Positions 7,221-25,836 are shown, counted from the stretch's first letter. The stretch is 55,119 nucleotides of DNA from a virus (IMGVR_UViG_3300021368_001314:1-55119); one strand, 5' to 3'. A program made the numbers and translations. Notes: generated from the letters alone by a model not told the origin.

Positions 7221-7799
7221 ATGAGTAAAATTAGAAAACCATGCAGATACAAACAATGTAAGGGGGTTGTCCATCGTGGCAAATGTCCCGTAGCCTCAAA
7301 AAGAGGTTCAAAGGGTGGAAGCACTACCGGCAAATCAAAAGCGAGAACAGGTTCAAGTAATGGTCGATTTACAGGACTTCGAGAATGTGGATGTCCAAAA
7401 AGACAACATTTACCTTCATGTATTCATTCTCAATTGACATTACAAAAAATCAAAATTATCAATGCACATGATTTCAATTATAATGAAAATCTACCACTTG
7501 AGATTTACGACCAAAAAATGCAATCTAAGTTTCCAAAGTCAAAGACTAAAATTAGAATTGCGAGAAAAGAAAATATCCCACTCAAAAGAACTGTGGCAAA
7601 TTGGGAATTAGAAAATGCCGTCAAGGTAAAATCAATTCCTCATTATTCATTCTTAAAATATACAGGCGTGTGTGCCTCATGTGCGTGTGAGAAAAATATC
7701 AAAGACGCACACGTCATACACGTAGACGATATTAAATATAAATTACCAAAAGAGCATTATTTCAAGGCTCGAATAATTTGCGACGCTTGCGAAGCATAA
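7221..7799 (+). CDS. Zn-binding basic protein with KGG-like motif and C-terminal CxxC...CxxC (HNH-like) domain
   Basis: CxxxxC..H..C, SKGGSTTGKSKA, CGC...H..C, CASC...CDAC; start reassigned to ATG 7221, 29 bp after TTTATATA at 7192. Confidence 0.6.
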   Translation: MSKIRKPCRYKQCKGVVHRGKCPVASKRGSKGGSTTGKSKARTGSSNGRFTGLRECGCPKRQHLPSCIHSQLTLQKIKIINAHDFNYNENLPLEIYDQKMQSKFPKSKTKIRIARKENIPLKRTVANWELENAVKVKSIPHYSFLKYTGVCASCACEKNIKDAHVIHVDDIKYKLPKEHYFKARIICDACEA

Positions 7800-7815
7800 T
7801 CGGAGACTATAAATA
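7782..7815 (+). promoter_or_regulatory. Class II promoter, copy 1 (GACGCTTGCGAAGCA + TATA)
   Basis: Motif 7782, TATAAATA 7808, ATG 7837. Confidence 0.8.
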
Positions 7816-7927
7816 GTATTAACAAAAGGTGAGAGCATGGACAAAAGAGGCGTGAATAACAGAGGCAGAACTCAAAGAGTTGTTAATTTGCTTCTTGATG
7901 ATTCTAAAAGATACGGGAGAAAAAGAT

Positions 7928-8173
7928 ATGAACAATGATAAATATAATGGATGGACAAACAGAGAAACTTGGTTAGTTAATTTGCATTTCGAGCCGGTAT
8001 CAAAATCTGATTTATATTGGATAAAAGATACCTTAGAACAGCAAATTGAAAAAATCAATGAGATTTGGTGTGGAAGATTCTTTTCAGATTTTATTGATTT
8101 GAATAAAATCAATTGGTATGAATTAGAAAATCATGTTGTAGAAAATAGTGATGACGCTTGCGAAGCAGAATGA
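7928..8173 (+). CDS. Conserved phage-type hypothetical protein (YNGWTNRETW motif)
   Basis: GGGAGA RBS before ATG 7928; ends DACEAE inside the motif. Confidence 0.65.
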   Translation: MNNDKYNGWTNRETWLVNLHFEPVSKSDLYWIKDTLEQQIEKINEIWCGRFFSDFIDLNKINWYELENHVVENSDDACEAE

Positions 8174-8186
8174 GAGACTTTAAGTA
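8153..8186 (+). promoter_or_regulatory. Class II promoter, copy 2
   Basis: Motif 8153, TTTAAGTA 8179. Confidence 0.8.
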
Positions 8187-8508
8187 AGATTGACGATAAG
8201 ATTAATTTGTAAGACAAGGAGACAAAAAATATGTACGAAGATAGCGAATGGCTAAAAGAAATGATTGAAATGACGAATGCGGGTAAGATTTATTTGGCGG
8301 GGTCTGAGAGATGAAAGATTTCCGCCCGACACTTCAAAAAAGAATTGATTTGAGAAAATCGAATCCGGCCTTAACCCTTTGGGCTAGGCAAAAAATTGAT
8401 GAACTCGGATTGAATGCCGAGAAATATTAGATTTACCAAAAAAGTAAAACTTGCCTTCCGGCATTAGGTTCGGGAGAGGACTTGTTTTGTAGGGTCAAAA
8501 AACCTTTC

Positions 8509-8543
8509 GGGGTGCATCCATTCGGGTGCATCCCACTTTTTTT
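8509..8543 (+). terminator. Hairpin plus oligo-T terminator
   Basis: GGGGTGCATCC-ATTC-GGGTGCATCCC then ACTTTTTTT. Confidence 0.7.
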
Positions 8544-8824
8544 ATTTTTATAGCCTATATTTTGTAGGGTTAAAGATTCATTTTTTTTATTTCAGATTCA
8601 AATATTTTGTAGGGTAGTTACTTCTTCCGCAAAAATAATTTTGTAGGGTCGCCCCTTTTTTCGCACATACATATACCCTACAAAATAATAGCCTGTGTTT
8701 TGTAGGTTATTATATTTACAGTAAAACTAAAAATCCTACAAAAGATTCCAAATCCAAAAACTAAAACCCTACAAAATAAAACCGTAAAAGAAAAAAATAA
8801 ACTCAAAAATGAACCCTACAAAAT

Positions 8825-8858
8825 AACGCTTGTGTAGCAGAATAGTAGTCTTTTTATA
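8825..8858 (+). promoter_or_regulatory. Class II promoter, copy 3 (variant AACGCTTGTGTAGCAGAAT), abutting an ACCCTACAAAA
   Basis: Motif 8825, TTTTTATA 8851, ATG 8881. Confidence 0.75.
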
Positions 8859-8880
8859 GTAGTAGTTTTTCGTGGTAAAT

Positions 8881-9300
8881 ATGCAGTTCGGTATTGATAT
8901 TAAAAAATCAAAAATGATTGGAGACTACGTTGTTTACAATAGCAAAGATAGAGAAAAGTTTAGAGAAATTAAAAAGGGAGATATTTTTTATATGGCTCAA
9001 GATAGAGTTAGAGTTTTGGCAAAAGTACATAAAGTTGAGTGGCGTTATGAAAATGGTAAAGAGTTTTATTGGTTTCCTATGAAATATATAGCGAGAAGAG
9101 ATTTACAAACAGGCGAAGTTAAAAGATGGAGTGAGGATAAAGATGGTTTTCTTTTTAGTTATTCTTGTAATCAAGAAACAGGTATTCAAAGACATTTGCC
9201 GGTTCGCTCTTGGGGATTTAAGATAGAATCCGAAAATCTAGATGGTTATCTAGATGCTTTTCAAGAAATGGCTACGCTGGACGCTTGCGAAGCAGAATGA
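8881..9300 (+). CDS. Hypothetical protein (ends DACEAE)
   Basis: Leaderless ATG 30 bp after TATA. Confidence 0.7.
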   Translation: MQFGIDIKKSKMIGDYVVYNSKDREKFREIKKGDIFYMAQDRVRVLAKVHKVEWRYENGKEFYWFPMKYIARRDLQTGEVKRWSEDKDGFLFSYSCNQETGIQRHLPVRSWGFKIESENLDGYLDAFQEMATLDACEAE

Positions 9301-9313
9301 CAATGCTTAAATA
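9280..9313 (+). promoter_or_regulatory. Class II promoter, copy 4
   Basis: Motif 9280, CTTAAATA 9306. Confidence 0.8.
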
Positions 9314-9349
9314 GTAGTGCTAATATGGATATATATAGGAGAAAAACAC

Positions 9350-9592
9350 ATGAGATTAAAAAGATTTTTAGATAGAAATAAAGGCGTGAATGTTTATGAT
9401 TTTATTTATGATACATATCGTGAATGGGAAAATAAGGATTTCCATACTTTTACCGAAATTATGGAATATGAACTAGGGGTAAAATCTGATAAAGTTTACG
9501 ATTTTTATGAAAAGTATGCTGAAAACGATTTTGATGAGTTTATATTAAGGATATTAAATAGAGCATATAAGGAGATGTTAGAAAATGTATAG
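9350..9592 (+). CDS. Hypothetical protein
   Basis: AGGAGA RBS. Confidence 0.6.
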   Translation: MRLKRFLDRNKGVNVYDFIYDTYREWENKDFHTFTEIMEYELGVKSDKVYDFYEKYAENDFDEFILRILNRAYKEMLENV

Positions 9593-9998
9593 TGGAATAT
9601 GGATTAGAGATAAAGATTTAGATAAAACCGTAGTACGTTGTGAGGGTGGTATCAGAGATATTACAAGTGCAAAGATAAAGTTTAAGATTTATCAACATCA
9701 AGATTGGTGGCTTGATAAATATGACGGATTTAATTTAGGGGAAGAGTTTTATTTATGGTTAGAAAATCTTGCTGATAATACAAGACCAATATATCATGCT
9801 CCAAATCCCTTTGGACTTGCGGTTGCTTATCATGTAGGTATCTATGAGAATGAACAATTTGAAGTTAGGATTGAGGTAGAAAAAAATATAGAGAGAGAAT
9901 CAGATTCACATTGGTTAAAAAAGTGGGGCGGAAAATTACAAAAGCCCCTCGGCACACCAACAGTTTCGACGCTTGCGAAGCAGAATCAAAAGGTTTAA
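9585..9998 (+). CDS. Hypothetical protein
   Basis: AGGAGA RBS; reads through the motif (TLAKQNQ). Confidence 0.6.
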   Translation: MYSGIWIRDKDLDKTVVRCEGGIRDITSAKIKFKIYQHQDWWLDKYDGFNLGEEFYLWLENLADNTRPIYHAPNPFGLAVAYHVGIYENEQFEVRIEVEKNIERESDSHWLKKWGGKLQKPLGTPTVSTLAKQNQKV

Positions 9999-10001
9999 AT
10001 A
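9968..10001 (+). promoter_or_regulatory. Class II promoter, copy 5
   Basis: Motif 9968, TTTAAATA 9994, ATG 10023. Confidence 0.8.
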
Positions 10002-10138
10002 GTAGGGCGGAGATGGATATATATGAGCAAATACACACCGATAATAGATGATAGGTATATAAGAGAGTTCAATGAATTAATGAAAAAAGCGATAGAGAAA
10101 GTGGAACGCTTGAGAGAAAAAGATAAGGAGAAATAAAT

Positions 10139-10378
10139 ATGACAAAGACACCGATAGAAGCATTACAAGATTTTGATTTTACAGTCAAAACAGGATTGAC
10201 GCTATACTTTGAACCAAACCCACATAGAGGATGGACTTCTGATAATATAAACAGAATGATGCAAGAAAAAATAGAAAGTGGAGAAATTGACCCGAAAGTT
10301 TTGAAAATAAAACATACAGAGAATCCGGCTGTTCGTATAAAAAAGTGTCATAATTTGTTGAGGGAGATGGGATTATGA
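10139..10378 (+). CDS. Hypothetical protein
   Basis: AAGGAGA RBS. Confidence 0.6.
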   Translation: MTKTPIEALQDFDFTVKTGLTLYFEPNPHRGWTSDNINRMMQEKIESGEIDPKVLKIKHTENPAVRIKKCHNLLREMGL

Positions 10379-10417
10379 AGTATGACCCAAACGCACCTTT
10401 AATTAGAGAAGAATTAT

Positions 10418-10451
10418 TACGCTTGCGAAGCAGAATCGTAAGACTTAAAAA
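10418..10451 (+). promoter_or_regulatory. Class II promoter, copy 6
   Basis: Motif 10418, CTTAAAAA 10444, GTG 10474. Confidence 0.8.
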
Positions 10452-10473
10452 GGATGACTAATTAGTTAGTTTT

Positions 10474-11550
10474 GTGGGAGAAGTAACCCACACTAAAAAA
10501 ACATTCGCAAAAAAACAAAAAGGAGAAAATAAAAAAAAAATGGAAGTGAAAAAAATGAGTAACGGAATGAGAGGAATGTTGGGTGCATATGCCCGATTTG
10601 GAAAAGAAGCACAAGGAACGACTGTGAAAGAGGTTTTGCGTAATGCAAATGCCGATTTCAATATTGGTATGGAATCAGTCTATACTAAAGATGGGAAGGT
10701 TATACCTAACCAATTTAGGACATTTAGAGAAGATACCGATGAAACTTTTGGTGTTGTAAAAGGCACATACAAAGTTATGCAAAATGAAAGATTGTTAAAT
10801 ATATCTGACGATTTGGTAAAAAGAGGCGTAGTAGATTGGGATAGGATTGGACTTGTAGATAACGGTAGAAAAATCGTAGCATCTTTTAAGATGCCGGAAG
10901 GATTCTCTATCGGTGGAATGGATGATGTAGACCAATATATCATGCTCCAAAATACAAATGACGGTTCGGGTGGAATACGTATTTTACCCTCAAATGTAAG
11001 AGTTACTTGCAGTAATCAATTTACATATATGCAAAGTCTGTTGAATAAAATGGGTATCAATAAAAATGCTCTAACTATCAGACATTCAGCACGTCAAGAA
11101 GATAGGATTGCACAATTGGTAGAGGCTCTAAAAATTGTAGACCATCTAAATCAGACATTCATGGAAACAGCAACGGAGTTAATCAATGTTGAAATGTCTC
11201 AAGATGACAGAATTAATTTTTACATAGATACTTTAGGGCTAAAACAAAATGAAGATATGATGAAGGGTGGCAAAGATTATGATGCTAACAATCCTTACGG
11301 ATTAGGTACTAGAGGTCAAAATACTCTTGATACTTTGTTGGAATTAGAGAAGGCTGATACAAATACCTTGAACGGTATGGAAAATAGTGCTTGGGCTGCT
11401 TTCAATGTGGCTACGGAATATATTGACCATGCATGGAGTCATACCAAAGATGGAAAATCCAGCGATAGCAAAGTAGAATCAGCAATCGTAGGAGCAGGTG
11501 CAAGAATGAAGTCAAACGCTTGGGAGACTATCACGGAGATGTACGCCTAA
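10474..11550 (+). CDS. DUF932/DUF945-family phage/plasmid protein
   Basis: FGVVKGTYKVMQNE, NTNDGSGG, RVTCSNQ, IRHS, AWAAFNVATEYIDH; alternative start ATG 10540. Confidence 0.8.
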   Translation: MGEVTHTKKTFAKKQKGENKKKMEVKKMSNGMRGMLGAYARFGKEAQGTTVKEVLRNANADFNIGMESVYTKDGKVIPNQFRTFREDTDETFGVVKGTYKVMQNERLLNISDDLVKRGVVDWDRIGLVDNGRKIVASFKMPEGFSIGGMDDVDQYIMLQNTNDGSGGIRILPSNVRVTCSNQFTYMQSLLNKMGINKNALTIRHSARQEDRIAQLVEALKIVDHLNQTFMETATELINVEMSQDDRINFYIDTLGLKQNEDMMKGGKDYDANNPYGLGTRGQNTLDTLLELEKADTNTLNGMENSAWAAFNVATEYIDHAWSHTKDGKSSDSKVESAIVGAGARMKSNAWETITEMYA

Positions 11551-11564
11551 GATTTATCGTAAAA

Positions 11565-11607
11565 GTAAGTAGGGGGGTAGTACCCTCTACTTACGCCTTC
11601 GGGCGTA
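11565..11607 (+). terminator. Two adjacent stem-loops, the second with a C(UUCG)G tetraloop
   Basis: GTAAGTAGGGGG...CCCTCTACTTAC and TACGCC-TTCG-GGCGTA. Confidence 0.6.
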
Positions 11608-11614
11608 GCCTATC

Positions 11615-11659
11615 TTTTGTAGGGTAACGCTTGCGAGGCAGAATGAATAGATTTAAGTA
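11615..11659 (+). promoter_or_regulatory. Class II promoter, copy 7, directly preceded by an inverted CCCTACAAAA
   Basis: TTTTGTAGGGT 11615, AACGCTTGCGAGGCAGAAT 11626, TTTAAGTA 11652, ATG 11682. Confidence 0.8.
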
Positions 11660-11681
11660 AAAAGAAAAAGGAGAGAGATAT

Positions 11682-12095
11682 ATGGGTAGAGCAAGATACG
11701 GAAAAACCGGAGAAATATGCAAAAGACAAAACGGAAAAATGATGATAACTTGTAGGCCAACACCTACGATTTTAGATGATAAAGATATAGCCATGTTTTT
11801 AGGCTATCTTTGTAATGTACAAAGTCATTATAGTGACTACGGAGAACAAATTAGTTATGAAGATGGTAAACAAAAAATACATGATTGGCAATATAATACA
11901 GGTGCAGTTACACCTTTGACAAAGAAATTAATTATGGGTTATCTAGAAAGTAATTATTACTTAGCACAATTTGAAGAAGGTACTGATATGTTTGAGTTCT
12001 ATGATTCAGAGAATGGTTCACATAGAGCATTACTAGAAAAAGTACATGAGATATTCCCTTCTTTTGTGGTAAAAGAAACTGAGGTGATTGCATGA
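11682..12095 (+). CDS. Hypothetical protein
   Basis: ATG 30 bp after TATA. Confidence 0.65.
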   Translation: MGRARYGKTGEICKRQNGKMMITCRPTPTILDDKDIAMFLGYLCNVQSHYSDYGEQISYEDGKQKIHDWQYNTGAVTPLTKKLIMGYLESNYYLAQFEEGTDMFEFYDSENGSHRALLEKVHEIFPSFVVKETEVIA

Positions 12096-12349
12096 GTAAT
12101 CCTTACAGAGTCAAAGTTTATCCTATGGCCGCAAATCAGTTTAGGATATTTCATGGTGATAAGATAACATTTCAATCATACAATCATACAATATGCACCA
12201 AAATTGGAGATAGAGTAATTTTACATGAGCCATATTGGAATATGTATTCGGCAACCACTAACAAATATTTACTAAGATTCTTAGAAGAAGATTCAATTAA
12301 TACTATTAGGGCAAAAGTAAAATCGGGAGAATATGAGGTGATTGCGTGA
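12092..12349 (+). CDS. Conserved phage-type hypothetical protein (FQSYN...YSATTNKY)
   Basis: GAGGTGA RBS, ATGA overlap. Confidence 0.65.
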   Translation: MSNPYRVKVYPMAANQFRIFHGDKITFQSYNHTICTKIGDRVILHEPYWNMYSATTNKYLLRFLEEDSINTIRAKVKSGEYEVIA

Positions 12350-12558
12350 GTTTAACATTAAATGATATAATCAGTTTTACATTTAAGGAAAGAGAAAAAG
12401 ATAAATATAGTTTTGATTGGCTATATGATTATCCTATTACAGTCGCTTACAAAGATAAAGATGGAGTAACCGTTTTATCAGATATTACGAGTATTTGCTT
12501 TAACGGTAAAAGTTTTCAATTGAATGAAGAAGAGTTTGACAAAGAGGTGAATGCTTAA
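12346..12558 (+). CDS. Hypothetical protein
   Basis: GAGGTGA RBS, overlap. Confidence 0.6.
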   Translation: MSLTLNDIISFTFKEREKDKYSFDWLYDYPITVAYKDKDGVTVLSDITSICFNGKSFQLNEEEFDKEVNA

Positions 12559-12920
12559 TGGCTAATTTGAATATTATTACCAAGCAAGTTATCTCTTGGA
12601 TAAATGAATCTAATACGGATTTTAATTTAGAGTTAGGAGAAAAGAAACTTTACTTAGTTGTAGAATGGACTGATGGTGCATCACTTTTTATAGAAGATTA
12701 TTTTAATTTTATGAATGAATTGATTATGGTTTATTGTGATTTAGATGAAGATACTGATGAGGAAAAAGTAATTTGGTTTAACAAACTATTCGGAATCGGT
12801 AGTGAATGGTATAATTTAGCAAAAGAACAGTTATTAGATAATCTCTTCTCTGCGGTTGCTGACGCTTGCGACACAGAATCGGTAGACTTAAATAAAATGG
12901 AAAATGAGGTGAATATATGA
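12558..12920 (+). CDS. Hypothetical acidic protein (contains DACDTE)
   Basis: GAGGTGA RBS. Confidence 0.6.
   Translation: MANLNIITKQVISWINESNTDFNLELGEKKLYLVVEWTDGASLFIEDYFNFMNELIMVYCDLDEDTDEEKVIWFNKLFGIGSEWYNLAKEQLLDNLFSAVADACDTESVDLNKMENEVNI
12861..12894 (+). promoter_or_regulatory. Class II promoter, copy 8
   Basis: GACGCTTGCGACACAGAAT 12861, CTTAAATA 12887, ATG 12917. Confidence 0.8.
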
Positions 12921-13159
12921 GAAATACATCAATAAATGCACATGATATAAAAGAAATAAGATTAGTATATGGAGATACGGAAGATGGTTTAGGCCACCTA
13001 CTTAGAGTTATAATTGTTAATAACGATGACTCAACTGATGACATTTCCCTTTTCGGAGCGAAAAATAGTATTAGAATACCCGTAAAACTAGATGAAAAAA
13101 TTATGACTACAAGACATAATATTAGTTTTATCGGAGATGTAAAAGAGGAAGAGGAATAA
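12917..13159 (+). CDS. Hypothetical protein
   Basis: ATG 30 bp after TATA. Confidence 0.6.
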   Translation: MRNTSINAHDIKEIRLVYGDTEDGLGHLLRVIIVNNDDSTDDISLFGAKNSIRIPVKLDEKIMTTRHNISFIGDVKEEEE

Positions 13160-13161
13160 AT

Positions 13162-13500
13162 ATGGCACTAAAAGATACACTAACTAATTTGCATAAGTAT
13201 TATGAAGAGATAGAGACATTATACGGTGAACACGACTTTAACCCTAATATTTCTTTTGCTAAAACTTACGCTAAAAATACTGTTTGGGCTGCTTTTTATA
13301 CAGCAGCGAGAGAGATAGGTATGCCCGAAGATATGGCTAAACAATTTATTGATTCAAAGTGGTTTAGACACAATGAAGAAGAAATATACCAACAACTTAC
13401 AGCGACATTATTTACAATGCTTTGGTGTGATGCATCTTTTGTTGATAACACACAGTTTAGTAAATTAGAGCCTTACATTGATAGAGGGGATGTAGAATGA
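13162..13500 (+). CDS. Hypothetical protein
   Basis: Operon packing, GAGG RBS. Confidence 0.6.
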   Translation: MALKDTLTNLHKYYEEIETLYGEHDFNPNISFAKTYAKNTVWAAFYTAAREIGMPEDMAKQFIDSKWFRHNEEEIYQQLTATLFTMLWCDASFVDNTQFSKLEPYIDRGDVE

Positions 13501-13612
13501 TTGCAGATAGTTTTAAGGAAATAATAAATGATGAAATGATGGTATTGATATTAACTCAAGTTATTTTTGGGGTAATATCATTAGGGGTATTAGTTGCTGC
13601 GGTTGTGATATT

Positions 13613-13795
13613 ATGAGTCAAAAAATGCACGTTAGAGATAAATTGAGAGGTGCTTTAGACCATTTAGAAAGTGCCTGTAACCTTCTTCTTTCAGCGAGAA
13701 ATGAGGCGGAAATAACAAGTAAAAGTTACGCTAGACTTAACAATGATATTGCAGATGTAGAATGGCAAATAAAATATTTATTAGGAGATGAGTAA
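13613..13795 (+). CDS. Small helical hypothetical protein
   Basis: Abuts the next gene. Confidence 0.5.
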   Translation: MSQKMHVRDKLRGALDHLESACNLLLSARNEAEITSKSYARLNNDIADVEWQIKYLLGDE

Positions 13796-14419
13796 ATGAA
13801 GATACCAAGTTATTACGAATACAAGTACTATGTAGGCGACCCTTGTTATGTTATAGATGATAATAGATGGGATGAGTTTTGTGAGGCTCTATGGGCTAAT
13901 GAACACGACAATGCAGTAGATGTAGCAAAATACAAAAAGATACCTATAAATGAGGTACGACACGAAGATAAATATCCCGTTCATATTGAGTGGGACGTAG
14001 ACGGTATAATTTACAATATAGAAGTATGGAATAGCCCTTTTGGAGATGGTACTTGGAAGTTTAGTAATACCGTAAAAAAAATGCGTGGTTGGATTGCAGG
14101 TACGGAAATGGGAGTTGATGCAGGTTTATTGGCTATTGTGCCTTATGGTGCTATTTCTAATAACAGTACTTGTATAGATAAAGATAACGTAAAAGTAATA
14201 TCTGATTTAGGTATCATATTTACACATGAACCATACTTACAAACAGGTGAATACATTACAGGTAATGTTAGATTGAATGACAACGACGAAGATAATGTAA
14301 TCTATTGTGATAATTGCGGTGAAGAAACACACGACAGCGATTTAATGTGGTGCGAATATGGTAACTGTATTGGTTGTTGGACTTGTTATGAATGTGAATG
14401 TGAGGATGAGGAAGAATGA
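13796..14419 (+). CDS. DUF4241-like protein with C-terminal Cys cluster
   Basis: YVGDPCY and GVDAGLLAIV motifs; CDNC/CEYGNC/CWTC/CEC tail. Confidence 0.5.
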   Translation: MKIPSYYEYKYYVGDPCYVIDDNRWDEFCEALWANEHDNAVDVAKYKKIPINEVRHEDKYPVHIEWDVDGIIYNIEVWNSPFGDGTWKFSNTVKKMRGWIAGTEMGVDAGLLAIVPYGAISNNSTCIDKDNVKVISDLGIIFTHEPYLQTGEYITGNVRLNDNDEDNVIYCDNCGEETHDSDLMWCEYGNCIGCWTCYECECEDEEE

Positions 14420-14790
14420 GTAGTAGGCGACCTAGAAAAATCATAGTTGATTTCTGTTACAGATACATTAGAGATAACGGAAAACAAACTTCTAGTGATT
14501 TGCTTAAAGCATATTACGAACAAGATTTAACTACGAAAAAAATCGGTCTTTGTACACAAAGAGAATTATCACAGACACTAACAAAAGATAGACTTTTCTT
14601 TAAGGTAAAAGAAGATTCTAAAACAGTAAAGTATGATATTAATGATGTGCATGAGGTAGCGAAGAAATTGGCTTCACTAACACATATTAGAGCGACCCCT
14701 GCTCAGATGCCTAAGATACTTAGGGATGCATATATTGACGCTTGCGAAGCACAATCAACAGACTTAAATAGAATGAGCGAGAGGGTATAA
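14416..14790 (+). CDS. Winged-helix-like DNA-binding protein (contains DACEAQ)
   Basis: QTSSDLL...TQRELSQTL...LF pattern shared with other small ORFs. Confidence 0.5.
   Translation: MSSRRPRKIIVDFCYRYIRDNGKQTSSDLLKAYYEQDLTTKKIGLCTQRELSQTLTKDRLFFKVKEDSKTVKYDINDVHEVAKKLASLTHIRATPAQMPKILRDAYIDACEAQSTDLNRMSERV
14737..14770 (+). promoter_or_regulatory. Class II promoter, copy 9
   Basis: Motif 14737, CTTAAATA 14763, ATG 14792. Confidence 0.8.
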
Positions 14791-14949
14791 TATGAGTAAA
14801 ACAGTAGAAGTAAAGATGAGAGTATTAGATTGGACATGGTGCGACGGAGACGAAGAGTGTTTCGTTACACTAGAATACAGCGATTGCCTACAAACAAAAC
14901 CACTTATTTATAGGGGAATTGTAAGTATAGAAGATGTGAGGGATTTACA

Positions 14950-15501
14950 ATGAATATATTTGTACTAAACCAAAACCCCGAATTAGCGGCTAGAGATTAC
15001 TGTAACAAACATCTACCAAAGATGTGTGTAGAGATGTTACAAATGCTAGGTTCGGCTGTCATTAGACACGGTGCTACACCCGACATGATGCCACTTACTA
15101 AGAAAGGTACGCCTCTCAAGGGTGGCTATCATAATCATCCTTGTACTCGATGGGTAGGAGACAGTAGAGACAATTATATTTGGACTGTACGCCATGCCCT
15201 AGAGATATGCAAAGAATATACAGACAAGTATAACAAGATTCATTTTTGCGAAGCAGGTATTCGCCATCTTTATTTTATGGCAAAACTAATTCCCGAAGGC
15301 GACCTTACACATTTTGCTCTTGCTATGCCCGATGAGTATAGGCCGGAAAATGTAGACGGTGAAGAAATTATCTATCATGCCGATGCAGAGGCAGCAGTAG
15401 ACGCTTACAGGCGTTATTATCATAGTAAAGAGTTTGCTCGATGGGATGGTCGCATCATGCCTTCATGGTGGAAAAGTTACAGATATGTGGGGTTAGAATA
15501 A
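14950..15501 (+). CDS. Pyrimidine-dimer DNA glycosylase / endonuclease V-like protein
   Basis: MNIFVL...A...CNKH..KM..E..QML, HNHPCTRW, AMPDEY, AVDAYRRYY signature. Confidence 0.75.
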   Translation: MNIFVLNQNPELAARDYCNKHLPKMCVEMLQMLGSAVIRHGATPDMMPLTKKGTPLKGGYHNHPCTRWVGDSRDNYIWTVRHALEICKEYTDKYNKIHFCEAGIRHLYFMAKLIPEGDLTHFALAMPDEYRPENVDGEEIIYHADAEAAVDAYRRYYHSKEFARWDGRIMPSWWKSYRYVGLE

Positions 15502-15675
15502 TATGAGAGAAGAAGCAAGTATATCAGAGGAAGATTTTGCAGAGTTGTGGGATTTGTGGTTTAGTATAATGCCTTTTCTTTCTACATTTTACGCATCAAA
15601 AAATCAGATAATTATAGACATTCTGTATAAGTTTAGAGATATAAATCACAAAAATAATTTAGGATTGGTGGAAGA

Positions 15676-16035
15676 ATGAAAATACCGGATATGTTTTACA
15701 ATCAAGGTTCTTTTAACGGTAAAAGTAACCCATACGAAGATATTTATCACCGTGTAGAAACAAGTGGATTTGCGGGTTGGACTAAACAAAATGGACAAGA
15801 TGTATTTGTGATAGAAGTTGGAGAACACAAGTGGGATTGCTGTTGTTCGGGATGCATAGATGATGAAACAGTTACAGAGCATTTAGAGTGGATTGATTGG
15901 TATGGAAGAAATTATGAATGGGAAGTTACACACCATAGAAATTGGAAGTATGAATGGGTAGATAAACTAGGGACAGGTAATCCCATGTGGTTTCCAAAGG
16001 ACTTTAACTTTACCAAAGGAGATGAAGAAGAGTGA
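15676..16035 (+). CDS. Hypothetical protein
   Basis: GGTGG RBS; acidic tail. Confidence 0.6.
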   Translation: MKIPDMFYNQGSFNGKSNPYEDIYHRVETSGFAGWTKQNGQDVFVIEVGEHKWDCCCSGCIDDETVTEHLEWIDWYGRNYEWEVTHHRNWKYEWVDKLGTGNPMWFPKDFNFTKGDEEE

Positions 16036-16059
16036 GTAGTTTTTTCTTAAATAAAAAAA

Positions 16060-16093
16060 GACGCTTGCGAAGCAAGAACGACAGACTTAAAAG
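16060..16093 (+). promoter_or_regulatory. Class II promoter, copy 10
   Basis: Motif 16060, CTTAAAAG 16086, ATG 16116. Confidence 0.8.
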
Positions 16094-16146
16094 GGATGAC
16101 GTTTTAGGTAGAAACATGGCGAGAGCCGACAAAGGAGATAACAGAA

Positions 16147-16341
16147 ATGAATAAAGAAAGATATGAAATGGAAATGGAAAGAGAAATATATCGCTCAATG
16201 CTAGATATGATAGACAATGGCGATATTGTAGAAGATATTACGGATGTAGCAACAAGAAAAAGAATATTGCACGTTAAAACTGTTCTACATAGTATGTTAA
16301 ACGCTAATGCGTTTATGTCCGTAACTAATGGAGAGGAATAA
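16147..16341 (+). CDS. Hypothetical protein
   Basis: AAGGAGA RBS. Confidence 0.55.
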   Translation: MNKERYEMEMEREIYRSMLDMIDNGDIVEDITDVATRKRILHVKTVLHSMLNANAFMSVTNGEE

Positions 16342-16342
16342 A

Positions 16343-16615: not shown

Positions 16616-16787
16616 ATACATGACTACAATAACGGTAAAAGTAAGAATAGAAGTAGAAGAAGAAATAGAGATTGATGTAGAAAGCGATTTGATGCACGAA
16701 AGCATTGAAGAATACATGGATGGTGTAACGTCAAACTTACAAGACCATATACTTTTAGAAGATTATGCAGAATGGGAGTTGGTTTAG

Positions 16788-17018
16788 ATGAGTGACGATG
16801 CTATTATACAAAGACTAAATGCACTAATTGAAGAATTAGAGCAATTGAGAAAGGCTGATGAGGCTTGTGATTATGCCTTACATTACATATATGAAACGGA
16901 AAGCAGTTTGCCTAGCGAAATATGCATGAGTCATCATGCAGGTATGGAGATGGAAGAAGTACAATCCGAGATACAAGAAAGAATAACAGAATTAGAATAT
17001 AAAATAGGAGAGATATAA
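16788..17018 (+). CDS. Coiled-coil hypothetical protein
   Basis: Packed ORF. Confidence 0.55.
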   Translation: MSDDAIIQRLNALIEELEQLRKADEACDYALHYIYETESSLPSEICMSHHAGMEMEEVQSEIQERITELEYKIGEI

Positions 17019-17019
17019 A

Positions 17020-17301
17020 ATGAGTGAATTAAAAAGACATTATTGGTCGGAGACATTACTTTGTACTAGCGGAAAAGTAAAGATTGACAGAAGAGAGATT
17101 GCGGCAATAGTCGAAAGAGATTTAGTAAAATATTCAGAACTAGATATACACTTAAAGTCCGGTAGTATCTTTACCGTAAAAGAATATGACGTAAATACCA
17201 TAGCAAATCTCTATCTAATAGAGTCGCCACATGAAGAGGTGCAAACAGTACCTAATACTTTTACCATAAGAAAAGGTAAAGCACCGGAGAGTGAAGAGTA
17301 A
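17020..17301 (+). CDS. Hypothetical protein (small beta domain)
   Basis: AGGAGA RBS. Confidence 0.6.
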   Translation: MSELKRHYWSETLLCTSGKVKIDRREIAAIVERDLVKYSELDIHLKSGSIFTVKEYDVNTIANLYLIESPHEEVQTVPNTFTIRKGKAPESEE

Positions 17302-17714
17302 TGCCTAACAAGAGACAGAATGCAGCACGACTGTATCTATACAATAGAAAATACAAAGCACGTAGAAATTATACAGGGGAAGAGGAATGAGTTTTGGCGA
17401 CTTCAAATGTAATTGCGGTAAAAGAAAAATAGTTTACAAGAAACCTAAGTACCCTAATTATTGCGGTAAATGTATGGGGTGGTTCTAATACCTAAATTAC
17501 CACCTAAAGAAGATGACATGGGTTATACGGGTGATTTACCTAGTATGGCTACCAACATGAGAAATATGCAAAACCACCTTAAAAGAAAGATTAGAGTAGA
17601 TGAAATACATCCCGATAATGTAACCGACGAGGAAATGACAAACTTCTTGATTAGTTGTTTCGGTTTTAGTAGAGAGTATTGTGAAAAAGCAGTAGAAGAA
17701 TGGAGAGAAAAGTT

Positions 17715-18020
17715 ATGAGTGAAAAAGCAATTTATAATAAAGATATAAAAGGAATCGAATTAACCTATGAAGGACATTGTTTCATAGATTTGGATGCTTT
17801 ATTTGAAGGAGAAAAAAACCCATTTGCAGCAGATACAGTAAAACAATGGTGGGTTAAATACGGGAGATTACACGTAGAATTATATAATGGTATTATTATA
17901 GAAAAATGTGTGATTCATCATGTAGTAGATGCCTACGATAACTTAGACACAAAGTGGCCTACTACTATCATGGTAGAAGATAGAGAAGGTAATTTCCACA
18001 GGAGAGAAGTCCATGAGTAG
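17715..18020 (+). CDS. Hypothetical protein
   Basis: GGAGA RBS; ATGA overlap. Confidence 0.55.
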   Translation: MSEKAIYNKDIKGIELTYEGHCFIDLDALFEGEKNPFAADTVKQWWVKYGRLHVELYNGIIIEKCVIHHVVDAYDNLDTKWPTTIMVEDREGNFHRREVHE

Positions 18021-18276
18021 TATTGAGGAAAAAGTAATTGCCGAGATTAGACAACGTGCTAAAAAAGGCGAGGCCAAATACGGTACTACAATGGATAGGT
18101 GCGACCTATCTCTAAAGGAATGGTTACAACACCTCAAAGAAGAATTGATGGATGGTGTAATTTACACACAGAAAATAATTAATGAGTTAGAGGTTTTAGA
18201 AAATCTTGAGATTGCACAGGCTATTATAGACGCTTGCGACACGAAATCGAACACCTTATATATAGAAGAAGAGTAG
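18013..18276 (+). CDS. All-alpha NTP-pyrophosphohydrolase (MazG-like fold) small protein (contains DACDTK)
   Basis: R..KG..KYGTTMDR.DL...WL.HLKEELMD...Y signature. Confidence 0.6.
   Translation: MSSIEEKVIAEIRQRAKKGEAKYGTTMDRCDLSLKEWLQHLKEELMDGVIYTQKIINELEVLENLEIAQAIIDACDTKSNTLYIEEE
18229..18262 (+). promoter_or_regulatory. Class II promoter, copy 11
   Basis: GACGCTTGCGACACG 18229, CTTATATA 18255, ATG 18284. Confidence 0.75.
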
Positions 18277-18283
18277 GGATATT

Positions 18284-18556
18284 ATGAGAAAAGTACAGTT
18301 GAAACGAATGGTCGCTAAGGCACTTATCGGCCAAGAACAAGGCTTAACAGCACAAGAGATTTACGGTAAATTAAACTACCAAGCACTATCTAAAATAAAA
18401 AACCCTAAGCATATATCTAACATACTAAAGAGTATGAAAGGCGTAGGTAAATACAATACAGGCGTAGGTGTTAAACTAAATGGGGATAGATACAAAGTAA
18501 ATCTATACAAGATTGAGGACATGGATGAAGTAATGAAATTAGGGGGGCTTAAGTGA
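18284..18556 (+). CDS. Winged-helix-like DNA-binding protein
   Basis: GLTAQEIYGKL...ISNILK...VNLYKI. Confidence 0.55.
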   Translation: MRKVQLKRMVAKALIGQEQGLTAQEIYGKLNYQALSKIKNPKHISNILKSMKGVGKYNTGVGVKLNGDRYKVNLYKIEDMDEVMKLGGLK

Positions 18557-18885
18557 AGAAGTTAGAACCACAATGGCCGTATGTAGATTATGAATACCGA
18601 TTCGCAGATGAGGATGCAGTAGATATAGAGGATGTAGTAAGGACATTACAAGGCTATAACCCAAGTAGTAATATTGCTAGACAAATAGAAGAGTTTGGTG
18701 TGTGTGTACCCGAATATGAGAATCAGATACAGCGATATAGAAATACAATCGAAATGGCTTATGAGTTTATGTTCATAGGTCAATTCAAAGCGAAAACCCC
18801 GCAGAAAACAATCAAGAGATTTAAGAATGCTATTGATAGGGTAAAAGAAACAGTAAGGAGAAATAAAAATGACAGAGAAGAATAG
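18553..18885 (+). CDS. Hypothetical protein
   Basis: GTGA overlap. Confidence 0.55.
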   Translation: MKKLEPQWPYVDYEYRFADEDAVDIEDVVRTLQGYNPSSNIARQIEEFGVCVPEYENQIQRYRNTIEMAYEFMFIGQFKAKTPQKTIKRFKNAIDRVKETVRRNKNDREE

Positions 18886-19069
18886 AAGATGGATAAACTT
18901 TGGAAGATACAGCAGCCCACCGATAGGTAGGGGGAAAATATTAGATTGTGAGTTTACAGACAAATATAACCCGCTTGACTTGCCGATGTTATATCTCAAA
19001 CTAGAAGTAAATGGTGTTGTGTATGAAGGTACATTACCCGTAAAACAAAGTGGGGATGAGGAAGAATGA
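18869..19069 (+). CDS. Hypothetical protein
   Basis: AAGGAGA RBS. Confidence 0.5.
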   Translation: MTEKNRRWINFGRYSSPPIGRGKILDCEFTDKYNPLDLPMLYLKLEVNGVVYEGTLPVKQSGDEEE

Positions 19070-19229
19070 ATCTATGTTTACACGATAATGTATATATTGA
19101 CGATTTTGAGGTTGTCAATGGTGGTGAAGATGTACTTGTTACCATACGATGCTACAAATGTAGTCAATCACAACAACATACCTTATGTATTGACAATATG
19201 CTATACGATTTACATTTGGGGTGGGAAGA

Positions 19230-20279: not shown

Positions 20280-20310
20280 TTTATAATCGAAAGAAAAGGA
20301 GATAAGAAAT
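20280..20310 (+). promoter_or_regulatory. Class III promoter (TATA followed by CG.AAGAAAA)
   Basis: TTTATAAT-CGAAAGAAAAGGAG, ATG 20311. Confidence 0.6.
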
Positions 20311-23808: not shown

Positions 23809-24049
23809 GAAGTGGCGTACTGATTCTGTTAAGACTTTAATAAATAGGTCTATCTACGAAAAAGATATGCCTAAATTAATTGATGCTATGAAAGAAGATA
23901 ATCTTACGGCAAATATAACTCCTAATGGTATAGAATGGTATCATGCTGATTATAGAGTTACAAAGACGGCCATAAGAGAAGTATGGGGTCTGACAGCAGG
24001 GCAAATGGAAAGAGTGCAGAATTATGTTTATGGACACGACCCATTCTAA
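23801..24049 (+). CDS. Hypothetical protein
   Basis: GGTGA RBS, overlap. Confidence 0.6.
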   Translation: MTKKWRTDSVKTLINRSIYEKDMPKLIDAMKEDNLTANITPNGIEWYHADYRVTKTAIREVWGLTAGQMERVQNYVYGHDPF

Positions 24050-24102
24050 CTTTATATAGTTGAGTTTGAAAAAAATTGTAGCAAAAAATTATTGGTGGTA
24101 GC

Positions 24103-24768
24103 ATGGGTATTGTAATATTTACGGATGACGACAGTAAGTTTATGGATTCTAAATACATTATGATGATAGGGGAAATTGATACACCACCTACGGATAAAGA
24201 TACTACTTACATCTTGCGTAGTAATAAGTTTAAGGAGAAGGATGTCTTAGAATGGCTTCCTTTGATAGCAAACCGGCTTGTAGTTTGTTGTGATAAACCA
24301 CCAAAGATTACTAAGAAAAGCGAGGATTACGTTATTATATCTGACTCTCTTAAAATTAAAGGTAAAAGTAATCACTACTCCCCTATCAATGGGTTGCTAA
24401 CATGGAAGGATAGAAGAAGAGTAAATGCTGTTTTTTCCAAAACACCGTTGCCTTTGGCTAAAGCATTCCTAAAAGAAAATGATGTAGATATTACAGTATG
24501 GCGTAAATTAGCCAAAACTGCTATGTTTTTACCGGAAAAGTACGCTAGGGCTATCATGGTTTATGGTATAGAACCTGCTCATAAAAAAATTAAGTTTCCT
24601 AAGAAGAAGAAAGAAGTTTATAGGCATGAATTATGTCGTTCTAGTGATAAGCACATAGATGTCATAGTGCAAAACTCTATAACCGTAAGTAATCGCATTA
24701 AGGAACAAGGCGGCAGCGTACCTAAAGGTATGAAGAAGTCTAAGGATTTGATAAATGAATGGTTGTGA
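24103..24768 (+). CDS. Hypothetical protein (possibly a degenerate clamp-loader-associated subunit)
   Basis: GGTGG RBS; LVVCCD strand plus helical basic C-terminus; function speculative. Confidence 0.55.
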   Translation: MGIVIFTDDDSKFMDSKYIMMIGEIDTPPTDKDTTYILRSNKFKEKDVLEWLPLIANRLVVCCDKPPKITKKSEDYVIISDSLKIKGKSNHYSPINGLLTWKDRRRVNAVFSKTPLPLAKAFLKENDVDITVWRKLAKTAMFLPEKYARAIMVYGIEPAHKKIKFPKKKKEVYRHELCRSSDKHIDVIVQNSITVSNRIKEQGGSVPKGMKKSKDLINEWL

Positions 24769-24986
24769 TGTTTATGATAGGGGTAGGTAAATTATTAATT
24801 GTATTGGGGCTATTATATTTCCCGTTCAAAATGATAGGGGATTATTACCATCCTAGACAAATAAACACGAAGTATAAAGACGATATACATTTATATCAAG
24901 ACGGCGGAGACGACGGCTTCTTTATGGCCGCTATGTATCAAGATATGGGGAACGATTTATAAGCACTATGAGGCTTACATTTATAC

Positions 24987-25385
24987 ATGAGTGCTAATAA
25001 CAAAAGAGTCCGACGCATAATCGTGGACATCTTATGGGAATACGGTGCTATGACAAAAGAAGGAATGGCTGCTATGTTAAGTAAAACAAAAAACATTAGA
25101 ACCGTACCTTCACCCCATAGTCTTTCCGCCTTACTTAGCAAGAATCCACAAATAACACAAGTGGGTTCTACGAAGGTAGAAAATGCAGTAGGAACTACTG
25201 CTAAACATTTAGTTTATGATGTAGATAGAGAGTTAATAAGGTGCAAGGAAGATATTATGCTTACTAGAAGTCCTACCGTTATGACACCATCTCAGATGGA
25301 ACAGTCGCAACAATGTAGTTGTGGTAAGATAAGAATATTTCCCCCAAATGAAACTCGATGCTTACATTGTATTAGAAAAGTATAA
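24987..25385 (+). CDS. Winged-helix protein with C-terminal Zn ribbon
   Basis: GAMTKEGMA...PHSLSALL...LVYDV; CSC...CLHC; TTTATAAG 31 bp upstream. Confidence 0.6.
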   Translation: MSANNKRVRRIIVDILWEYGAMTKEGMAAMLSKTKNIRTVPSPHSLSALLSKNPQITQVGSTKVENAVGTTAKHLVYDVDRELIRCKEDIMLTRSPTVMTPSQMEQSQQCSCGKIRIFPPNETRCLHCIRKV

Positions 25386-25404
25386 TAATAAAACACTATG
25401 AGGT

Positions 25405-25779
25405 ATGACTATGCAGGGAATAGAAATGGATGACTTATCCACGATTATAGCAAGTGTGTTTAATGTAGAAAGACCGATAGATTTAGGGGAAATATTAACC
25501 GCACAAAATATGAGTGAAGCACAGTACATTAGATTTGTTTTATGTCTAGCAACAGACGTAGATTATGAAGTAGGGGAAGATGAAGTAGTAGACGATATGA
25601 TTGCTAGTTTACCCGAAAAAGTAAGTACTGAATATCTAAAGGGTATTATGGTAGGTTTACTTCTATCCCTAGAAGCAGAAGCGAGAACAGGCGGCCAATT
25701 AGGTTTCAGACCTGCACACGCAGAAATTATGAGTTTATTCCAATCAGCAGAAGCGTTAATTTATGAGAGGCAAGTCTAA
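25405..25779 (+). CDS. Acidic hypothetical protein
   Basis: GAGGT RBS. Confidence 0.6.
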   Translation: MTMQGIEMDDLSTIIASVFNVERPIDLGEILTAQNMSEAQYIRFVLCLATDVDYEVGEDEVVDDMIASLPEKVSTEYLKGIMVGLLLSLEAEARTGGQLGFRPAHAEIMSLFQSAEALIYERQV

Positions 25780-25781
25780 AT

Positions 25782-25836
25782 GACGCTTGCGAAGCACGAC
25801 AAAAAGTATATAACCGTTAAAAAATGAGGTATAAAT
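25782..25836 (+). promoter_or_regulatory. Hybrid class II / class III promoter (copy 12)
   Basis: GACGCTTGCGAAGCA 25782, then TATATAACCGTTAAAAAATGAGGTATAAAT, ATG 25837. Confidence 0.8.

Follow-up and report, generated by a model that had tools for sequence, protein, structure and literature searches.

Known archaeal activators such as Ptr2 and TFB-RF1 have binding sites just upstream of BRE/TATA. Repeated promoters of a comparable kind have been described in haloferacalesviruses, where HF2 carries class I intergenic repeats (Russ, Pfeiffer and Dyall-Smith 2021, PMC8707807). According to that account, there are seven copies of 58 bp, kept in place among relatives, with blocks alpha (upstream), beta (TATA) and gamma (start site); mapped start sites put the first base of the TATA motif at -26 (PMC8707807). 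Mutation of the upstream block was without effect in uninfected cells, so that block is considered a candidate regulator site (PMC8707807). Two bacterial systems also bear comparison: the promoter-early stem-loops (PeSLs) that Arbiol et al. (2010, PMC2839356) described in T4-type phages, and the immunity repressors of Cluster A mycobacteriophages with their stoperator sites (Mavrich and Hatfull 2019, PMC6550527; PMC9283540).

Here we describe a 15-nt box repeated upstream of promoters in a virus stretch of 55,119 nt (IMGVR_UViG_3300021368_001314:1-55119), the whole of which is referred to as the window. The window encodes an RFC-type clamp loader, a Hef/XPF-type nuclease and a GroEL-type chaperonin. 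Its gene set agrees with that outlined for the GroEL-bearing magrovirus groups B/B1/C (PMC5434244), and its sequence identifies it as a GroEL-type magrovirus whose host would be an archaeon. In the surface ocean, magroviruses are described as belonging to the most abundant viruses (PMC5434244); both they and their hosts are uncultured. No tRNA genes were detected in the window and, among five relatives, tRNA-Ala was found in G005 only. Look-ups of GroEL and PolB in genome contigs returned no archaeal host contig, and megablast of positions 7000-19000 against the GenBank phage collection gave no match. The magrovirus papers searched contain no mention of the box and nothing on gene control, in line with the sequence-only reading, which knew of no such element in marine archaeal viruses.

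Twelve box copies at a fixed distance from TATA-like octamers

Searching the window for GACGCTTGCGAAGCA with up to three mismatches returned 12 copies, all on the + strand (seven exact, one with one mismatch, two with two and two with three). The chance expectation is 0.43 copies (100 shuffles), and 12 copies were reached in none of the shuffles. A profile built from the 12 copies and run over the whole window recovered the same 12 (E <= 3e-6) and nothing else, the next best match having E = 2.1. The box has the core ACGCTTGCGA and lies at approximately -55 to -41 relative to the predicted start site; ACGCTTG is invariant in all 12 copies and the right half of the box is variable.

In 11 of the 12 copies, the distance from the box start to the first base of a TATA-like, AT-rich octamer is 26 nt (CTTAAATA three times, TTTAAGTA twice and the others listed below once each), and the copy at 25782 is followed by TATATAAC at 25 nt. 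The archaeal octamer type (C/T)TTA(A/T)ATA is thus present behind every box in the window. An ATG or GTG is found 55 or 56 nt from the box start, 29-30 nt from the TATA start, in 10 copies; nine of these codons open ORFs of 33-358 codons, the exception being copy 16060. The twelve positions, the octamer spacing and the start-codon spacing had all been claimed from the sequence alone, and all are reproduced here. The features are as follows.

7221..7799, + strand: gene of a 192-aa multi-cysteine (Zn-finger-like) basic protein, candidate box reader
7782..7839, + strand: unit 1, box, TATAAATA at +26, ATG at +55 opening a basic 33-codon ORF
8153..8233, + strand: unit 2, box, TTTAAGTA, no ATG at +55, ATG at +78 after a GGAG word
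8825..8883, + strand: unit 3, variant box AACGCTTGTGTAGCA, TTTTTATA, ATG at +56, 139 aa
9280..9352, + strand: unit 4, box, CTTAAATA, ATG at +70 after AGGAG
9968..10025, + strand: unit 5, box, TTTAAATA, ATG at +55
10418..10476, + strand: unit 6, TACGCTTGCGAAGCA, CTTAAAAA, GTG at +56, DUF932 protein of 358 aa
11626..11684, + strand: unit 7, AACGCTTGCGAGGCA, TTTAAGTA, ATG at +56
12861..12919, + strand: unit 8, GACGCTTGCGACACA, CTTAAATA, ATG at +56
14737..14794, + strand: unit 9, box, CTTAAATA, ATG at +55; a pyrimidine-dimer glycosylase-like gene (14950-15501) belongs to this unit
16060..16149, + strand: unit 10, box, CTTAAAAG, ATG at +56 opening 12 codons only, gene ATG at +87 after GGAG
18229..18286, + strand: unit 11, GACGCTTGCGACACG, CTTATATA, ATG at +55 of the winged-helix gene
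18284..18556, + strand: gene of a 90-aa winged-helix protein
25782..25839, + strand: unit 12 (hybrid), box plus second promoter type TATATAACCG, ATG at +55
30113..30145, + strand: second promoter type, box-less, TATATAACCG, 20 nt, ATG

The box-less TATATAACCG promoter type has a second copy at 34516-34549. Seven of the 12 boxes are contained in the upstream ORF, no terminators were found in the box units of the window, and three units have a leader with a Shine-Dalgarno (SD) word downstream of +55.

Two other interpretations of the box sequence were set aside. Read as a hairpin or palindrome, GCTTGCGAAGC gives a 4-bp stem of -0.69 kcal/mol with no compensatory pairs; individual stem pairs are broken in up to two of the 12 copies, and this reading was rejected because the right arm varies without compensation. 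The MotA box of phage T4 is TGCTT, and a likeness to it was dropped because the spacing from the box to the AT-rich element does not fit.

Conservation in relatives

The exact 15-mer occurs in 113 stretches of the viral contig collection, mostly as single matches judged to be chance, and the comparison was restricted to loci with several box copies. As the proposal of a promoter class had led one to expect, many related contigs share the same layout (box, 11 nt, TATA, 22 nt, ATG), as does one of the five complete relatives scanned (G002, PolB 64%). G004 has a variant box, GCTTGCG, and the box is absent from the complete relatives G001, G003 and G005.

The window, G002 and nine loci provide 55 non-redundant copies. 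The distance between box start and ATG is 54-56 nt in 45 of these; in the others the ATG is far away, with no broad spread. Positions 28-32 read T, T, A, A, A in 38-46 of the 55 copies, and positions 21-24, the BRE zone, are A in 30-36 copies without a sharp consensus. The conserved stretch across the 55 copies is 15-19 nt.

Concerted switch of box type

All 12 copies in the window share TTG(C/T)G (type 1). A closely related contig (L216/L242, PolB 96%) has GACGCTT(A/T)(A/G)GA (type 2) in all 13 of its copies and not a single type-1 copy. Similarly, type 2 is found in nine of nine copies of L220 and type 1 in six of six copies of L221 (PolB 95%), and the replication proteins are 94-96% identical between viruses of the two types. 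In the orthologous promoter of the winged-helix gene only three of 58 positions differ between type 1 and type 2, two of them being box positions 8-9. In the three copies where an upstream ORF continues in that frame, the type 2 box has TTA rather than the stop TAA, a further sign of constraint at the DNA level.

Because all copies switch while orthologous promoters stay near-identical, the box would be read by a co-evolving trans factor. The earlier suggestion that the box is an operator for such a factor therefore gains strong, if indirect, support from sequence comparison of close relatives, and the concerted two-letter switch points to a reader encoded by the virus.

A cysteine-rich protein as candidate reader

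The gene at 7221-7799 heads the box array, and its last five codons (D-A-C-E-A) coincide with box copy 1. The same 15 nt are identical in Zn-finger genes whose proteins share 31% identity; copy 1 is evidently under constraint at the DNA level. The promoter of this gene is box-less, with TTTATATA at 7192, an ATG 29 nt further on and no SD word. Profile searches find the Zn-finger family in the window, G002 and G004, and not in the box-less G001, G003 and G005. At least one box-like copy is present in 29 of 34 loci with a Zn-finger homologue; of the five box-less loci, L252, L256 and L261 stop inside the gene or at its edge, and L268 and L271 are marginal N-terminal matches. In all sequences that include the head of the array, the Zn-finger gene is directly upstream of the first box.

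The protein also differs between box types, each genome having one box type. K40 and G48 are invariant in all 26 type-1 Zn-finger proteins, which are 30-98% identical to that of the window, and are replaced by Q and P, beside an insertion of 2-3 residues, in all three type-2 proteins. Judged by their alignment rows and C-termini, P0004, P0005 and P0007 (type 1) and P0006 and P0008 (type 2) also obey this rule, although overall they are equally divergent. The type switch is a single evolutionary event in one clade, so this residue association has n = 1. The iteron word nearby is likewise not the same in the two types (ACCCTACAAAAT versus TGCCTACAAAAC), and the Zn-finger differences could therefore track the iterons instead.

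The AlphaFold model of the protein has a pLDDT of 65. Foldseek searches with it gave no match at E <= 0.001, the best ESM Atlas score was 0.79 (lead level only), and no significant family was found in Pfam, PHROGs or NCBIfam. Given the poor model and the lack of a significant fold or family match, the protein is only a putative DNA binder; the 192-aa Zn-finger-like protein is nevertheless the best candidate for the box reader.

A host transcription factor or TFB paralogue could read the box instead, the two types then being adaptations to two host strains. Genes that fire right after entry depend on host or virion-carried proteins, as this explanation would have it, and the core GACGCTTGCGA is the same across lineages whose proteins are 30-65% identical, which fits a conserved host reader and a conserved viral reader equally. 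However, the box and the Zn-finger family co-occur and are jointly absent from three of six genomes. Moreover, a change in all 13 copies between viruses with such similar replication proteins needs a change of reader, and a matching change is found in a viral protein. The exact 19-mer (box plus GAAT) was found in none of the archaeal genomes among 185,579 species representatives, with two single matches in bacterial MAGs, although this is a weak test. We consider a host reader unlikely.

The winged-helix protein

A further alternative is that the reader is the 90-aa winged-helix protein, which would regulate its own gene through box copy 11. Its model (pLDDT 86) has a winged-helix fold and returns winged-helix DNA binders in every top Foldseek row (probability as high as 0.99, but E 0.03-0.25); Pfam HTH_20 matches three of eight family members (best E 0.0037). 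Directly in front of the gene, 19 of 22 relative loci have a TATA box together with a box copy of type 1, of type 2 or of degenerate sequence; L230, L231 and L232 lack such a promoter. However, its counterparts in L216, L217 and L218 are 100% identical to it and that in L220 97%, and all four loci have type 2 only. Being near-identical across the types, it cannot explain box positions 8-9, and it is probably not the specificity reader, a role for which viral winged-helix proteins had initially been considered. The GACGCTT half, common to both types, could still be its target, but as the reader proper we regard it as a poor prospect.

Leaders and the archaeal promoter reading

The geometry supports the proposed class of promoters with a fixed place upstream of a canonical archaeal TATA in a magrovirus-like archaeal virus. 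The suggestion that these promoters are leaderless holds in part: the ATG spacing fits it in 10 of the 12 window copies, but of the 45 promoters whose ATG coincides with the predicted start site, 42 keep an SD word 5-15 nt upstream of that codon. Such a word would be missing from a transcript that is leaderless throughout, so these words weigh against it. Box-less first genes (6088-, 7192+ and 37030+) have TATA 29-30 nt before the start codon and no SD word.

The SD words would be explained if the promoters were of bacterial type, with TTGCGA as -35, a 17-bp spacer, TAAATA as -10, transcription beginning some 41 nt past the first base of the box and a 15-nt SD leader, all served by a bacterial-like host polymerase. 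This spacing fits formally, the chaperonin is GroEL-type and relatives of PolB occur in bacteria-labelled MAGs, probably through mis-binning. On the other hand, with a 17-bp spacer the -10 would end in A (10), G (1) or C (1) and in none of the 12 copies in T, and with a 16-bp spacer its second position, which should be A, is occupied by T. The 15-19 nt of conservation extend well past a -35 hexamer, the octamers fit the archaeal TATA consensus, and SD-less genes have their ATG exactly 29-30 nt after such octamers. The ATG is either 54-56 nt from the box or far off, and replication and capsid genes are described as archaeal or halovirus-like (PMC5434244). A bacterial-type promoter is thus very improbable.

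Box promoters and gene shuffling

The sequence-only reading also proposed that the motif delimits cassettes, with breakpoints falling on it. An island at 9968-10025, 96.6% identical to locus L102, extends exactly from the box start to ATG+2 and is flanked by unrelated genes. About six of the 18 ends of the blocks shared by the window and L102 are at a promoter edge (8884, 9968, 10025, 10413, 12910 and 12924), and the others are plain gene borders. The exact island speaks for the cassette idea, but indels are equally frequent at box-less gene borders (12345/12544, 13616/13796 and 15507/15685). That the box has no regulatory role and is a mere homology block or junction for recombination is highly improbable despite this island and the homology blocks that stop at 8884 and 12924, since such a block needs neither a fixed TATA distance nor a single orientation nor a concerted two-letter change, and those box-less indels are just as common.

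Proposed mechanism

We suggest that the box is probably the docking site of a co-evolving, most likely virus-encoded regulator and forms the upstream half of a virus-specific promoter class. Its order would be box, 11 nt (purine-rich at the would-be BRE), archaeal TATA octamer, 22 nt and start codon, with TATA used by host TBP, TFB and RNA polymerase and the box by a sequence-specific regulator, the candidate being the cysteine-rich basic protein of 7221-7799. Expressed from its box-less, SD-less promoter, this protein would be made first and would then switch about 12 box promoters of small accessory genes jointly. Transcripts from the box promoters may begin at or next to the ATG, and the SD words before the same ATGs may serve read-through transcripts from upstream units that lack terminator insulation. 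The place of the box upstream of BRE/TATA favours activation, although repression or timing control is also possible; with TATA boxes this close to consensus, activation may be unneeded. Binding, the sign of regulation, timing and the start site are all predictions.

A wider interpretation, offered tentatively, is that an undescribed family of cysteine-rich DNA-binding regulators is wired through a 15-nt box to a dozen promoters and switches specificity together with them. This would divide near-identical co-circulating magroviruses into regulatory 'types' without cross-activation or cross-repression of one another's accessory genes, a counterpart of phage immunity groups among archaeal viruses, kept by selection during co-infection. 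The box offers a sequence signature for one temporal or functional gene class in magrovirus contigs of this lineage, and its promoters give concrete start-site predictions. The contrast between type 1 and type 2 is a natural two-state experiment that names a candidate regulator and candidate residues. If the regulator is confirmed, it would establish a new family of DNA-binding proteins and provide an example of operator and regulator evolving together in archaeal viruses.

Comparison with known systems

Like the sites of Ptr2 and TFB-RF1, the magrovirus box is immediately upstream of BRE/TATA; unlike those host regulons, it is viral, with 12 copies at invariant spacing. The PeSLs resemble it as small repeated promoter cassettes among small genes, the PeSL genes being described as non-essential, as lying in a hyperplastic region and as shuffled by recombination between PeSL copies (PMC2839356). 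PeSLs combine a sigma-70-type promoter with a stem-loop terminator, whereas the magrovirus promoter is archaeal and has neither a terminator nor a stable hairpin, seven of 12 boxes are inside the upstream ORF, and breakpoints are only partly at boxes.

Stoperators are likewise many co-oriented copies of a short asymmetric site, with specificity types that differ between related phages (PMC6550527; PMC9283540). They are read by one phage protein, while the magrovirus reader is a candidate only. As described, stoperators also differ in being genome-wide, in repressing and stopping elongation, and in having no fixed promoter distance; their repressor has an HTH, in contrast to the Cys-rich candidate, and the host is bacterial (PMC6550527; PMC9283540).

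The HF2 class I intergenic-repeat promoters are the closest known case. There is no sequence likeness, and the conserved part in the magrovirus is upstream only, the stretch from TATA to start being variable. The magrovirus has 12-13 copies, before small accessory genes, and the concerted box types and a candidate reader gene overlapping copy 1 are not among the features that we found described for HF2. HF2 promoter activity was shown experimentally (PMC8707807), and the magrovirus promoters are known here from sequence. What the two share is a tailed archaeal virus with several copies of a long, conserved, TATA-containing promoter that heads groups of genes and is conserved in relatives.

A repeated box upstream of TATA octamers

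The 15-mer GACGCTTGCGAAGCA has 12 matches in the window at three or fewer mismatches, all on the plus strand; shuffled sequence gives a mean of 0.43 matches and never reached 12. A profile built from these copies recovers the same 12 alone in 55 kb (next best, E = 2.1). The box has an invariant core, ACGCTTG, and variable positions 11-15 (AAGCA, AGGCA, ACACA, ACACG or TAGCA). In 11 copies an AT-rich octamer resembling the archaeal TATA box starts at +26, counted from the start of the box; in the last copy it starts at +25. A start codon (ATG or GTG) lies 55-56 nt past the box start in 10 of the 12, nine of them heading ORFs of 33-358 codons. At unit 16060 the ATG at that distance gives just 12 codons, the gene itself beginning at +87. 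In units 8153 and 9280 the ATG is at +78 and +70, preceded in each case by a GGAG-type word downstream of +55. The sequence-only reading had described the box as a viral promoter class with leaderless geometry, and its 12 coordinates, plus-strand orientation and TATA and ATG/GTG spacings are all reproduced.

Genes run rightwards up to about 37.8 kb and leftwards past that point. All 12 boxes lie within the rightward arm, mostly ahead of unknown small genes, and seven sit within the 3' end of an upstream ORF. Six of these seven ORFs read the box in one frame, GAC GCT TGC (D-A-C).

Features of the window
7221-7799 (+), Zn-finger gene (192-aa basic protein)
7782 (+), box, D-A-C frame
8153 (+), box, D-A-C frame
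9280 (+), box, D-A-C frame
12861 (+), box, D-A-C frame
14737 (+), box, D-A-C frame
18229 (+), box, D-A-C frame
18284-18556 (+), winged-helix gene (90-aa protein)

Virus identity and the promoter reading

Searches of Pfam, PHROGs and NCBIfam identified a large terminase, tail tube, tape measure, family B DNA polymerase, clamp loader of the RFC-small-subunit type, Hef/XPF-type nuclease and PD-(D/E)XK nuclease. The chaperonin is GroEL-type, not thermosome-type. For magroviruses, the article text of Philosof et al. 2017 (PMC5434244) reports this gene set, names B, B1 and C as the groups with GroEL, and infers, without demonstrating it, an archaeal host (Poseidoniales). Downstream of the tape-measure gene, a 2272-aa ORF (37764-44582, minus strand) is 32-41% conserved in all five complete related records (G001-G005) and has no Pfam or PHROG hit. 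PolB relatives (48-50% identity) also occur on L272 and L273, contigs (one of 61 kb) from MAGs carrying Rhodobiaceae and Opitutales labels, where viral contigs have most likely been binned among bacterial ones.

Internal genes throughout the window have a strong Shine-Dalgarno (SD) word (GAGGTGA-like) 6-8 nt ahead of the start codon. Some first genes, with no gene before them, have a strict TATA octamer 29-30 nt ahead of the start and no SD word; at 54818 (-) there is only a weak TATA octamer.

First genes with a strict TATA octamer and no SD word
6088 (-)
7192 (+), Zn-finger gene
37030 (+)

Six database homologues of the Zn-finger protein (P0001, P0004-P0008) have 188-194 residues, in line with a gene start at 7221. 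Judging from their sequence, such first genes would be translatable only as leaderless mRNAs, and their geometry is that expected for an archaeal start site.

A wider set of box promoters was drawn from the window, nine loci and one complete relative: 82 core matches, 76 of them with an AT-rich octamer, gave 55 non-redundant promoters after de-duplication at 85% identity, a few of which, window 10105 among them, probably match by chance. Of the 55, 45 have the ATG 54-56 nt past the box start, one has it at 58 nt, and nine have none within 50-61 nt. Such exact-or-far spacing is what an ATG constrained to sit on the start site would give. An SD word is found at -15 to -5 in 42 of the 45 promoters with an ATG at 54-56 nt; since it is upstream of the ATG, it would be missing from any transcript that begins there. 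Because 7 of 12 window boxes are inside an upstream ORF, the units are probably not insulated, and read-through transcripts would need the SD word. The same ATGs may thus have a dual use, serving transcripts that start there and, via the SD word, those that read through. We keep as a rival a bacterial-type promoter, with TTGCGA as -35, TAAATA as -10 and a start near +41, for which the 17-bp spacing fits, but its -10 would break the rules for that element, the last base never being T.

A second promoter type, TATATAACCG followed by 20 nt (with GAGGT or GGAG) and an ATG, heads replication-module genes and is conserved in 10 of 10 relatives inspected.

Copies of the second promoter type in the window
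25807, fused to box copy 12
30113
34516

Two box types among close relatives

An exact 15-mer search found ten viral loci with several copies. Among the complete relatives, G002 (PolB 64%) has seven copies of ACGCTTGYGA, laid out as in the window; this word has no copies in G001 (66%), G004 (62%) and G005 (50%), and one stray match in G003 (58%). G004 has a variant box, GCTTGCGTGGTC, in five copies, three of them with a TATA word 24 nt after the G of GCTTGCG (23 in the window). The box is lineage-specific, yet spread over viruses whose proteins are only 30-65% identical. In G003, AAAACTCACGATAAAAAAG stands immediately upstream of two TATA boxes (35048 and 41791; L204-L207) and may be that virus's own promoter-class element.

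Relatives with 94-97% PolB identity split into two box types. Box positions 6-10 read TTGCG or TTGTG in type 1, the form in the window (6 of 6 copies in locus L221; also L238 and L219), and type 2 reads GACGCTT(A/T)(A/G)GA (13 of 13 in L216/L242, with zero type-1 copies; 9 of 9 in L220; seven and nine copies in L243 and L244). At the site of window copy 12, six of nine such relatives have GACGCTTAAGAC and three have GACGCTTGCGAT. Window and L216 promoters ahead of the winged-helix gene differ at 3 of 58 positions, two of them box positions 8 and 9; orthologous promoters of the two types are nearly the same outside the box change. That every copy changed between viruses about 95% alike is as expected when a sequence-specific reader changes specificity, and the type switch is one evolutionary event.

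In type-2 relatives the shared frame reads GAC GCT TAA, so that the box provides the stop codon of the upstream gene. Position 8 is T and not A in exactly the three copies crossed by an upstream ORF in frame GAC GCT T.., giving TTA in place of the stop TAA. Since these exceptions occur only where the ORF continues, the DNA word is under a constraint of its own, with coding bending around the box. All 15 nt of box copy 1 are shared by the window and L093 although the proteins ending in it are 31% identical, which likewise points to constraint at the DNA level. Immediately after this copy, a very basic 33-codon ORF (7837-7938) is 84-94% conserved in type-1 relatives and was not found in the three type-2 relatives covering the site.

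Candidate readers of the box

Two candidate readers were picked from phyletic patterns. The Zn-finger protein has conserved cysteines (PCRYKxCKG...KCP; CGCP...H...C; CxxC...CxxC at the end), and its gene is immediately upstream of the first box wherever the array head is covered (window, G002, L059, L093, L005, L037, L074 and L102); in type 1 its final codons, D-A-C-E-A, are the box itself. By profile, the family is present in the window, G002 and G004, and was not found in G001, G003 and G005. At least one box-like copy occurs in 29 of the 34 loci holding a homologue; of the other five, three end within or at the gene and two are marginal N-terminal hits. Type-1 proteins keep K40 and G48, whereas type-2 proteins, such as the one encoded at L242 6001-6582, have Q and P and an insertion of 2-3 residues, a rule that holds over full-length sequences (26/26 type 1 versus 3/3 type 2) and is also seen between members equally far overall from the window's protein (57-69%). 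The G004 protein keeps K and NG, and the G004 variant box keeps GCTTGCG. Caveats are that the type switch happened once, that the iteron word beside the gene also changes between the types, and that the structure model is of low quality, with neither a fold nor a family match for the protein. The Zn-finger protein is therefore a tentative candidate for the reader, slightly more apt to be wrong than right; the broader reading, in which a promoter class and its probably viral reader co-evolve, is somewhat more likely than not.

The winged-helix protein has a confidently predicted winged-helix fold (pLDDT 86), and every leading Foldseek row is a winged-helix DNA binder, but with E of only 0.03-0.25. 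A box copy (type 1 or type 2; degenerate in L223) with a TATA word directly precedes its gene in 19 of the 22 relative loci, and no box copy does so in L230, L231 and L232. Being 97-100% identical in type-2 genomes, the protein cannot explain the change at positions 8-9.

Iteron-like words

In non-coding DNA at 4550-8823 and 11615, CCTACAAAA recurs 46 times, counting both strands, and forms tandem 15-bp arrays at 4587-4660 and at 5361-5430; this putative iteron or origin-like field adjoins the Zn-finger gene. This adjoining word likewise differs between types, being TGCCTACAAAAC in type-2 relatives where type 1 has ACCCTACAAAAT, and every complete relative has an abundant word of its own.

Abundant words in the complete relatives
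G001, GGTTACAAAAG, 20 copies
G002, CCTACGAAGT, 18 copies
G003, GTTACATAAT, 29 copies
G004, TGCTACAAAT, 37-50 copies
G005, palindrome TTCTGCGCAGAA, 11-14 copies

At L210 (G004 47549-52427), at least six promoters with the ATG 29-30 nt after the TATA start have ATGCTACAAAAAA, an abundant word in that relative, directly against their TATA box. Iteron-like words may also be promoter elements in some lineages.

Box promoters and gene exchange

The box had also been proposed to shuffle expression cassettes. A blastn comparison with the related locus L102 shows promoter 9968-10025, 96.6% identical from the first box base to 2 nt past the ATG, as an island flanked on both sides by unrelated genes, and further blocks end at promoter edges (8884, 10413, 12910 and 12924). 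Single-gene indels are equally present at box-less borders (12345/12544, 13616/13796, 15507/15685 and 15908/16017), and promoter edges make up about 6 of 18 block ends, well above their 4% share of the sequence but not clearly above gene borders in general. The comparison supports the proposal in part: a box promoter can be a portable junction and is not the sole site of gene gain or loss.

Comparison with known systems

A literature search covering article texts found nothing in print on magrovirus promoters. PMC5434244, PMC10160649 and PMC11706807 do not use the words promoter, TATA or intergenic in their article texts, and only the last uses motif, for a protein HTH motif. Unlike the T4-type PeSLs as described in PMC2839356, the box promoter has no terminator or hairpin. 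The closest known system is the class I intergenic repeats of halovirus HF2, described in PMC8707807 as seven 58-bp promoters with upstream, TATA and start-site blocks; their mapped starts are at the archaeal distance, and in uninfected cells they work without the upstream block. For Cluster A mycobacteriophages, PMC6550527 describes asymmetric sites, present in many copies, whose evolution is coupled to that of their reader. The novelty here lies in the strictly bipartite layout, the existence of two box types and the naming of a candidate reader.
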